From Deltaproteobacteria bacterium (GTDB taxonomy: Bacteria; Myxococcota_A; Polyangia; Haliangiales; Haliangiaceae), in the NCBI GenBank assembly GCA_031385555.1, contig JANNBP010000285.1, positions 1 to 43,023 on the forward strand: 43,023 nt of DNA. The letters run 5' to 3'. Below the pieces are notes generated by a model. The model saw nothing but the letters and a program-made list of their open reading frames with translations, was not told the DNA's origin and searched no databases. Numbering within the stretch: position 1 is the first letter of the stretch; each line of letters opens with the position of its first letter. The position numbers and the translations under genes are program-made. Of the stretch, positions 25,773 to 26,516 are shown piece after piece.

Positions 25773-26516
25773 TCAGCCGAGGCGCTCGATGATCTCTTCG
25801 CGGGTGGCAAACCCCTTCTCGATCAACAGCGCGAGCAGCTTCCTCAGCACCTGTTCGTCGCGCTCGACCACCGACTCGAGCATCGAGATGCGTTCCTGGA
25901 GCGCGTCGATCTCGCGGTCGCGCGACGCGATCTCGAGGCCCGACCGCGCCACCGGCGGCGGCGAGGTGCGGTTGACGAACGTGCGCAGGCCGTCGCGGAG
26001 CTCGGGCTCGAGCGCGACATCGCCGGCCCCGGGCCGCTCGGTGTCGTCGTAGCTGAGCGGGATCTCGATCGACTGCGACAGCTTCATCCCCGCACGGCCG
26101 TAGTAGCGCTCGAGGTTGCGCTCGATCATCTTCGGCCCGGCGAGGTACGGCCGCACGTTGAGCTGCGTGCGGATGCGGAGCTCGTCGATGATGCCGAGGT
26201 TCGTGGGATCGAGCATCGCCACGTCGAGGAACTTCATGGGCTGCGCGAACGGCACCACGTTGTGCTGCTTCGCGATGTGCCCGGGAACCAGCTCGGTCAC
26301 CGCCCGTGAGATCTGGAGCTTGTCGAGATCGACTGGCTCGATGCCGAGCTGCTTCGCGAGCACGCGCACGAGGTCGTCCTCCTTGATCAGCCGCATCTCG
26401 ACCAGCGTGCGACCGAGCGGGCGACCCCAGCGACGTTGATCGGCGAGCGCCGACCGCAACTGCATCTCGTCGATCGCCCCCGCTTCGATCAACATCTCGC
26501 CGAGCCGCTGCCTCAT
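25773..26516 (-). CDS. Stand-alone T2SSE_N / MshEN-type domain protein (putative c-di-GMP receptor) with a C-terminal coiled coil
   Basis: Two tandem 24-residue MshEN-type motifs are present: [24 protein letters not shown] and [33 protein letters not shown] coiled coil follows at aa 200-247. The start lies 25 bp after the vault-homolog stop on the same strand. Confidence 0.7.

Follow-up and report, generated by a model that had tools for sequence, protein, structure and literature searches.

A stand-alone MshEN domain protein encoded behind a bacterial vault homolog: a conserved Myxococcota family and putative c-di-GMP-binding adaptor

Does a stand-alone MshEN domain protein, encoded directly behind the gene of a bacterial vault homolog, bind cyclic di-GMP (c-di-GMP), and does it serve that vault homolog? 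The question is raised by contig JANNBP010000285.1 of assembly GCA_031385555.1 (Deltaproteobacteria bacterium; Myxococcota_A, Haliangiaceae), of which the whole stretch analysed, 43,023 nucleotides, is called the window here. On its minus strand, a gene for a 247-amino-acid (aa) MshEN protein follows the gene of a protein similar to the eukaryotic major vault protein (MVP). As a receptor module for c-di-GMP, MshEN is well established. Many copies of it, with uncharacterised partner regions, are known from myxobacteria; 22 MshEN genes were described in Myxococcus xanthus (Wang et al. 2016, PMC5013675). A sequence-only reading of the window had proposed a second-messenger-regulated adaptor linked to the vault-like protein. 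We lean towards the view that the gene encodes a soluble, probably dimeric, c-di-GMP-binding adaptor from a conserved and uncharacterised family of Myxococcota MshEN proteins, and that its adjacency to the MVP-like gene is lineage-specific.

Domain architecture and ligand-site residues

The protein is divided as follows, with residue numbers referring to the window protein and with MshE of Vibrio cholerae (VcMshE, PDB 5HTL) as reference.

25773..26516, minus strand: stand-alone MshEN gene, 247 aa, from the list of open reading frames (ORFs); ATG start, stop codon at 25773-25775
26436..26507, minus strand: MshEN motif I, R4-Q27, from the gap-free alignment to VcMshE (offset +5)
26421..26435, minus strand: spacer RRWGR, residues 28-32, invariant as RRWG(R/G) across the family
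26349..26420, minus strand: MshEN motif II, P33-Q56, from the alignment to VcMshE and family conservation
26091..26348, minus strand: MshEN_C (T2SSE_N1-type), residues 57-142, from PF05157, the AlphaFold2 (AF2) model, Foldseek and invariant columns
25935..26090, minus strand: disordered, proline-rich linker of variable length, residues 143-194, with a predicted local distance difference test score (pLDDT) <50 and gappy, unconserved columns
25776..25934, minus strand: family-specific C-terminal module, residues 195-247, from the alignment, the AF2 model and a profile search

The stand-alone MshEN gene called by the sequence-only reading proved to be real: the ORF has an ATG start, two profile matches and a coding-type composition, with GC fractions at the three codon positions of 0.70/0.42/0.90 that are typical for genes of this window of 66.6% GC. 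A homology search at E ≤ 1e-5 retrieved 869 proteins of ~240-270 aa, aligned and conserved over the full length. Residues 4-56 match the full NCBIfam model NF053729 ‘c-di-GMP_motif’ at 73.7 bits, where the cutoff is 38 (E 7.5e-21), and residues 57-142 match the Pfam domain MshEN (PF05157, E 8e-18). These matches are far above chance by sequence. The full MshEN domain thus consists of MshEN_N and of MshEN_C with its T2SSE_N1 fold, and reaches residue 142.

The sequence was compared with the MshEN motif RLGxx(L/V/I)(L/V/I)xxG(L/V/I)(L/V/I)xxxxLxxxLxxQ, which is expected as two tandem 24-residue copies separated by a 5-residue spacer. Two such copies are present at residues 4-27 and 33-56 with the spacer at 28-32; the tandem arrangement had been recognised before, but its extent had been put at ~80 aa, whereas both motifs lie within the first 56 residues. 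The claim that the module is not fused to any ATPase agrees with our searches, as the protein ends at residue 247 and a T2SSE ATPase domain was not found. The ATPase family models score far below their cutoffs and touch N-terminal sequence only: TIGR02538 (PilB) reaches 65 bits vs 676 over residues 5-148, and TIGR02533 (GspE) 19 bits vs 630 in the N-terminal region. The statement that the module is followed only by a coiled coil needed correction, because after the domain come a linker of ~50 aa, a long helix and, at the terminus, a short helix that is conserved.

In the AF2 model, built with 86 homologs, pLDDT is >90 over residues 1-142, and the predicted fold is a four-helix-bundle MshEN_N followed by an alpha/beta MshEN_C (T2SSE_N1). 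Foldseek matched the model to 5HTL, 7LKM, 8PDK, 9G1W and 2D28 with E-values from 1e-11 to 1e-6. The c-di-GMP-bound MshEN structure 5HTL was among the top matches (E 3.5e-11, TMt 0.76), and the model is grouped with MshEN, PilF GSPII (including GSPII-B) and PilB N-terminal domains, several of which are c-di-GMP-bound. The C-terminal module is modelled as a long heptad-like helix (195-233) that leads through a turn into a short one (239-246), with pLDDT ~87 for both helices.

The phmmer alignment to the V. cholerae domain is gap-free over residues 1-66, so that query residue i corresponds to Vc residue i+5. Motif I (R4-Q27) agrees with the consensus of Wang et al. at every position. The ligand contacts VcL10, G11, L25, L29, Q32, L39, G40, L54, L58 and Q61 are all present, as L5, G6, L20, L24, Q27, L34, G35, L49, L53 and Q56, respectively. 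Among 86 family members these positions, together with VcG18, are invariant or at least 93% conserved, and in motif I the residues L5, G6, G13, L20, L24 and Q27 show no or almost no variation; all 86 match NF053729. The turn glycine VcG18 is retained as G13. The arginine at position 1 of motif I (VcR9) is present as R4; family-wide K, Q or R is found there, mostly K or Q. In motif II the key residues L34, G35, L49, L53 and Q56 stand, but proline takes the place of the expected arginine and Arg42 that of the turn glycine. VcR38 corresponds to Pro33, directly preceded by Arg32, and is P/S/T/H across the family. The position of VcG47 (Arg42) is R/K in the family and N in some members, which is outside the relaxed set [GAS]. 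This loss lowers the confidence in ligand binding, not in domain membership.

VcMshE combines a tandem-motif site of 53 residues with a T2SSE_N1 domain, as the window protein does; the contacts are all retained and the predicted fold matches. The window protein differs from it in the absence of the T2SSE ATPase, in the replacement of VcR38 by Pro and of VcG47 by Arg, in the spacer RRWGR, and in the family-specific linker and C-terminal helical module after the domain. The spacer between MshEN half-motifs is generally non-conserved (Wang et al. 2016, PMC5013675); in this family it is invariant as RRWG(R/G), and its Trp is absolutely conserved (86/86). Spacer signatures resembling Q(R/K)(R/K)WG were also seen in M. 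xanthus MXAN_3836, MXAN_4667 and MXAN_7500.

A Myxococcota family with its own C-terminal module

Judged by sequence, the MshEN-linker-helix-tail architecture defines a single Myxococcota family, found mostly in Kofleriaceae/Haliangiales, because the C-terminal module occurs only at the end of MshEN proteins. When the profile of this module alone was searched against 1.84 billion representative proteins, it gave 133 matches, nearly all at the extreme C-terminus of proteins of ≤350 aa. Nine longer matches were checked and all of them start with MshEN, one with an additional N-terminal PAS domain; the exceptions resemble fragments of genes or coiled coils of a generic kind. When reference genomes were scanned, 80 loci came up, almost all from metagenome-assembled genomes (MAGs) labelled Kofleriaceae, Haliangiales or Myxococcales. 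MshEN_C (57-142) is very strongly conserved in the family, with invariant columns and an extremely conserved N1-type surface, and the last ~50 residues, with a mean column identity of 73%, are among the best-conserved of the protein. The metagenomic protein P0333 (477 aa) carries an N-terminal PAS domain ahead of MshEN, linker, coiled coil and tail, which hints at sensory input to the family.

Three distant members from Myxococcaceae/Myxococcales MAGs (L076, L078, L082) keep the whole architecture at 34-38% identity, and their motif II is fully canonical (GGRLG…MGF). The family is well defined in Kofleriaceae/Haliangiales and has relatives in other Myxococcales. Three features are specific to it: the module at the C-terminus, an RRWG spacer that is fixed, and a clade-specific remodelled second half-site. 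The C-terminal tail was also considered as a degenerate third MshEN half-motif. It is in register with motif I, but hhalign gave P≈0.009 with a probability of 2%, in comparison to P=0.0004 for the true repeat pair of motifs I and II, so that the idea stands as no more than a lead.

MshEN proteins that are not ATPases have been catalogued before, often with the domain beside uncharacterised regions (Wang et al. 2016, PMC5013675). Examples are Pseudomonas aeruginosa PA3740, with MshEN_N and a divergent N1 and a role in swarming, M. xanthus FrgA (MshEN-UNK-HEAT) and Escherichia coli NfrB (GT-MshEN) (PMC5013675). They resemble the window protein in using MshEN as a regulatory module outside the ATPases of type II secretion systems and type IV pili, but lack the coiled-coil-plus-tail module of its family; FrgA, in contrast to the window protein, has no recognisable binding motif. 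P. aeruginosa FimW was considered as a further stand-alone MshEN effector and was dropped, because the literature calls it a PilZ-domain protein. The Leptospira c-di-GMP census gave no stand-alone MshEN precedent.

In M. xanthus, MXAN_3836 is listed as motif-bearing in Supplementary Table 3 of Wang et al. (2016, PMC5013675). Its N-terminal fragment of ~78 residues shares the signature ALAEQRKWGGKLG with the window protein and is 51% identical to it and 56-59% identical to the three distant members. In contrast to the window protein, MXAN_3836 has an N-terminal extension of ~60 aa and a canonical motif II with the turn Gly. Judged from these ~78 residues alone, MXAN_3836 is probably the model-organism counterpart. 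MXAN_1090 was rejected as ortholog, since its similarity of ~35-40% over the N-terminus is at the generic MshEN level and MXAN_3836 fits better. Our literature search found no publication on either MXAN_3836 or MXAN_1090.

Putative c-di-GMP binding and mode of action

We consider it likely that the N-terminal bundle binds c-di-GMP. Binding is plausible because known binders tolerate substitutions at position 1, and one reported binder a substitution at the turn of motif I. The relaxed MshEN motif allows [RKPN], and therefore Pro, at position 1, and a construct with both R1M and R30K still binds c-di-GMP at 2.6 uM (Wang et al. 2016, PMC5013675). PilF GSPII-B, with c-di-GMP bound in PDB 8PDK, has Leu at position 1 of motif II. 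The PilB of M. xanthus has Asn at the turn position of motif I, and it was reported as a c-di-GMP binder (PMC11656802).

We propose the following mode of action. The four-helix bundle of residues 1-56 would most likely bind one c-di-GMP molecule, as in V. cholerae MshE. The T2SSE_N1-type subdomain (57-142) would serve as a protein-interaction surface, since GspE contacts GspL through this fold and since the N-terminal region of Xanthomonas citri PilB was crystallised with PilZ. The flexible linker would lead to the C-terminal helix, which probably dimerises the protein. From the predicted ligand bundle, the N1 surface, the linker and the dimerising helix it follows that the MshEN protein may act as a c-di-GMP-dependent adaptor for a partner protein. 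If c-di-GMP is indeed bound, the family would be a test case for motif drift, with a Pro at position 1, an Arg in the turn and a fixed spacer Trp, as well as a candidate effector of c-di-GMP outputs in a poorly studied myxobacterial group.

The usual genomic surroundings of the family differ from those in the window. At 50 loci the MshEN gene, whose product is cytoplasmic, lies directly after the gene of an unrelated ~633-aa protein (c1) with gaps from -4 to +52 bp, and c1, which has a lipoprotein-like N-terminus, is translationally coupled to it. Downstream, a sigma54-FHA activator, a rhomboid protein and a TolQ/R/A-like/TolB cluster recur. A search of the window for the usual neighbour clusters c1-c14 found none of them, nor were c-di-GMP turnover, PilZ, pilus or secretion genes found when these were sought there. 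The usual upstream proteins c5, c8 and c1 (L006 6718-10000 and ~50 other loci) have ~175, ~269 and ~633 aa.

Several points weigh against a c-di-GMP-dependent adaptor. Doubt over binding comes mainly from the Arg/Lys that the Kofleriaceae clade has at the motif-II turn, in place of VcG47 and outside the relaxed [GAS]. In addition, the second stacking arginine (VcR38) is replaced by Pro, Ser or Thr, and VcR9 mostly by Lys/Gln family-wide. The probable dimerisation through the C-terminal helix is read from a heptad-like pattern and from a model of the monomer. The usual neighbourhood did not point to a partner; there, c1, c5 and c8 are without Pfam domains and c1 looks exported. Finally, co-expression with the MVP-like gene may occur in this genome, given the 25-bp gap without a terminator.

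The substitutions in motif II give some weight to an alternative that we regard as unlikely but as the most serious one, namely that the MshEN domain of the Kofleriaceae clade is degenerate and non-binding and acts as a ligand-independent scaffold or receptor of another ligand. The changes at VcR38 and VcG47 are both family-wide in Kofleriaceae, whereas the distant Myxococcales members keep the canonical motif II, and the RRWG spacer, being invariant, hints at a pocket that has been remodelled. There are also precedents for lost binding: in XpsE it was attributed to changes at conserved positions including R38G, and ABF44566_III lost it with changes including F48K, which adjoins the turn Gly (Wang et al. 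2016, PMC5013675). On the other hand, all ten Leu/Gly/Gln contacts are under strong purifying selection, and the NF053729 score is well over the cutoff in the query and the family. The position-1 arginine is dispensable in proven binders, as the double-substituted construct and GSPII-B illustrate, and the AF2 model retains the helix-turn-helix geometry near residue 42 despite the substitution. We retain c-di-GMP binding as the preferred reading.

It is improbable, in our view, that the protein regulates pilus or secretion machines or acts as a decoy for them, which would be a special case of the adaptor model. Free MshEN/N1 would then compete with or bridge PilB/GspE-type ATPases at GspL, PilM or PilZ-type partners in a c-di-GMP-dependent manner. 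This would suit the closest relatives by sequence and structure (the PilB, PilF and MshE N-terminal domains), the contact of the T2SSE_N1 fold with GspL (4PHT, 2BH1), the complex of the X. citri PilB N-terminal region with PilZ (7LKM), the extremely conserved N1 surface and the effect of the non-ATPase protein PA3740 on swarming (PMC5013675). The neighbourhoods speak against it, since neither the window nor the usual family surroundings hold pilus or secretion genes.

Relationship to the vault homolog and the local gene block

In the window the MshEN gene is part of the following arrangement.

26542..28983, minus strand: MVP-like protein, 813 aa, upstream neighbour; Pfam MVP_shoulder 92.7 bits, one Vault_3 repeat 30.3 bits
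26517..26541, minus strand: intergenic spacer of 25 bp from the MVP-like stop to the MshEN start; the MVP-like ORF ends at 26542
24889..25761, minus strand: tetratricopeptide repeat (TPR) protein, ~290 aa, signal-peptide-like N-terminus, downstream; travels with the MshEN gene in the clade of the window
24426..24824, minus strand: 132-aa protein (p132), signal-peptide-like N-terminus; last gene of the clade-specific co-directional block

The MVP-like protein serves as context here. Its similarity to rat/human MVP in phmmer (query 435-746 to MVP 465-795, E 3e-13) is confined to ~435-746, which comprises the last repeat, the shoulder and the cap helix, and the N-terminal ~430 aa have no family match. 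On this partial match, membership in the major vault protein family is tentative, and shell formation is putative. The protein is very strongly conserved across Kofleriaceae with 65-94% identity over 800 aa, with 5923 matches at E ≤ 1e-5. Bacterial MVP homologs in Myxococcales have been described, and the part of that account available to us names no partner (bioRxiv 10.1101/872010). The likeness of the MshEN protein to the eukaryotic vault accessory proteins vPARP and TEP1 lies only in the idea of dedicated MVP partners; there is no sequence or domain relationship, and the MVP/MshEN gene pairing is not conserved.

The distance of 25 bp reported for the window is exact. Within the spacer, a weak GAGG precedes the MshEN ATG by 12 nt, and a minus-strand scan between the two genes found no promoter- or terminator-like site, which is uninformative either way. 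Co-transcription of the two genes in this genome is possible. The adaptor role tied to the vault-like protein, which had been suggested from this position, found no support when the linkage was examined from both sides. We searched 82 MshEN family loci with up to 10 kb of fetched sequence either side, and 48 informative MVP loci, in which the 3' end is complete and followed by 1 kb or more of sequence. An MVP-like gene was present within the fetched sequence in five of the 82 (L001-L004, L064), all with an MshEN identity of at least 67%, and absent from the other 77. An MshEN gene follows the MVP-like gene in two of the 48 (L088 with 94% and L089 with 84% MVP identity) and is missing in 46, including all loci with an MVP identity of ≤81%. 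The pairing is restricted to one narrow clade with MshEN identities of at least 67% and MVP identities of at least 82%. At its border, L086 (69% identical MshEN) has the MVP context and L087 (65%) the usual lipoprotein context.

The order of genes in related genomes points in the same direction. A convergent gene usually comes after the MVP-like gene, which looks monocistronic. Next after the MshEN-TPR-p132 block, the window has M1-peptidase, BolA, Hc1 and OPT genes; L085 lacks this block, and its MVP-like gene directly adjoins M1 peptidase/BolA/Hc1/OPT in the window order. The block was either inserted in the sub-lineage of the window or lost in that of L085, and insertion is the simpler reading because the pairing is seen only in the narrow clade of the window. 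The position of the MshEN gene behind the MVP-like gene is accordingly best described, from these comparisons, as a recent lineage-specific rearrangement and not as a conserved functional pairing.

That the protein is nevertheless a c-di-GMP-regulated adaptor dedicated to the vault-like protein, coupling the second messenger to shell assembly, opening or localisation, we consider very improbable: same-strand adjacency at 25 bp without a terminator-like site, its recurrence in the clade of the window (L001-L004, L064, L086, L088, L089) and the wide distribution of both families in Kofleriaceae are outweighed by the 77 and 46 unpaired loci, by the different, translationally coupled upstream gene at 50 MshEN loci, by the convergent gene usually found after the MVP-like gene, by the extra gene that separates the pair in L001 and L002, by a distance of >10 kb on the one 96.7-kb contig apparently carrying both genes, and by the distant family members, which sit in Myxococcales contexts without an MVP-like gene. 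A narrower version has an equally slim chance. One Kofleriaceae sub-lineage might have recruited the MshEN receptor, together with two exported proteins, into an MVP-like operon and so coupled c-di-GMP to the assembly, localisation or loading of vault-like particles. If true, no signalling input to a prokaryotic MVP homolog would have been known before this one; as it stands, comparative genomics does not support a signalling link to the bacterial vault homolog, and we keep to the view of a family adaptor with lineage-specific MVP adjacency.

L001 and L002 belong to the same clade as the window, and their extra gene between the MVP-like and MshEN genes (L001 6622-7986, 454 aa; L002 6664-7986, 440 aa) encodes an N-terminus with Lys/Ala/Pro-rich repeats, has no Pfam domain and has no counterpart in the window. 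Whether the L001 gene of 454 aa is related to the lipoprotein c1 that usually lies upstream was also examined, and no similarity was found. In L048 and L056, two Haliangium-like loci, the order of ~840 aa, ~457 aa and MshEN resembled the MVP-455-MshEN order of L001; a divergent MVP pairing was rejected there as well, since the proteins are unrelated: BLASTP of these neighbours against the MVP-like protein and the L001 455-aa protein showed no similarity, and by inspection one is UvrD-helicase-like and one polytopic-membrane-protein-like.

On the opposite strand, the mechanically called ORF p364 (28898-29992, plus strand) begins within the MVP-like gene, 86 bp from its 5' end. The tblastn matches that nearly all MVP loci give to the first ~30-50 residues of p364 reflect the conserved MVP N-terminus read in antisense, and the true start of p364 probably lies further downstream. 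A small protein (21497-21850, plus strand) matches Pfam Hc1 (chlamydial histone H1-like, E 8e-22); its gene adjoins BolA and the M1 peptidase, an arrangement conserved in L085, L086 and L159. Elsewhere, the window encodes a Ser/Thr protein kinase of 1256 aa that has TPR repeats at its C-terminus (6169-9939, plus strand), a secreted protease of the thermolysin type carrying PPC domains (14978-17779), a TonB-dependent receptor (30485-32914) and an ABC transporter of the gliding type (35711-39432).

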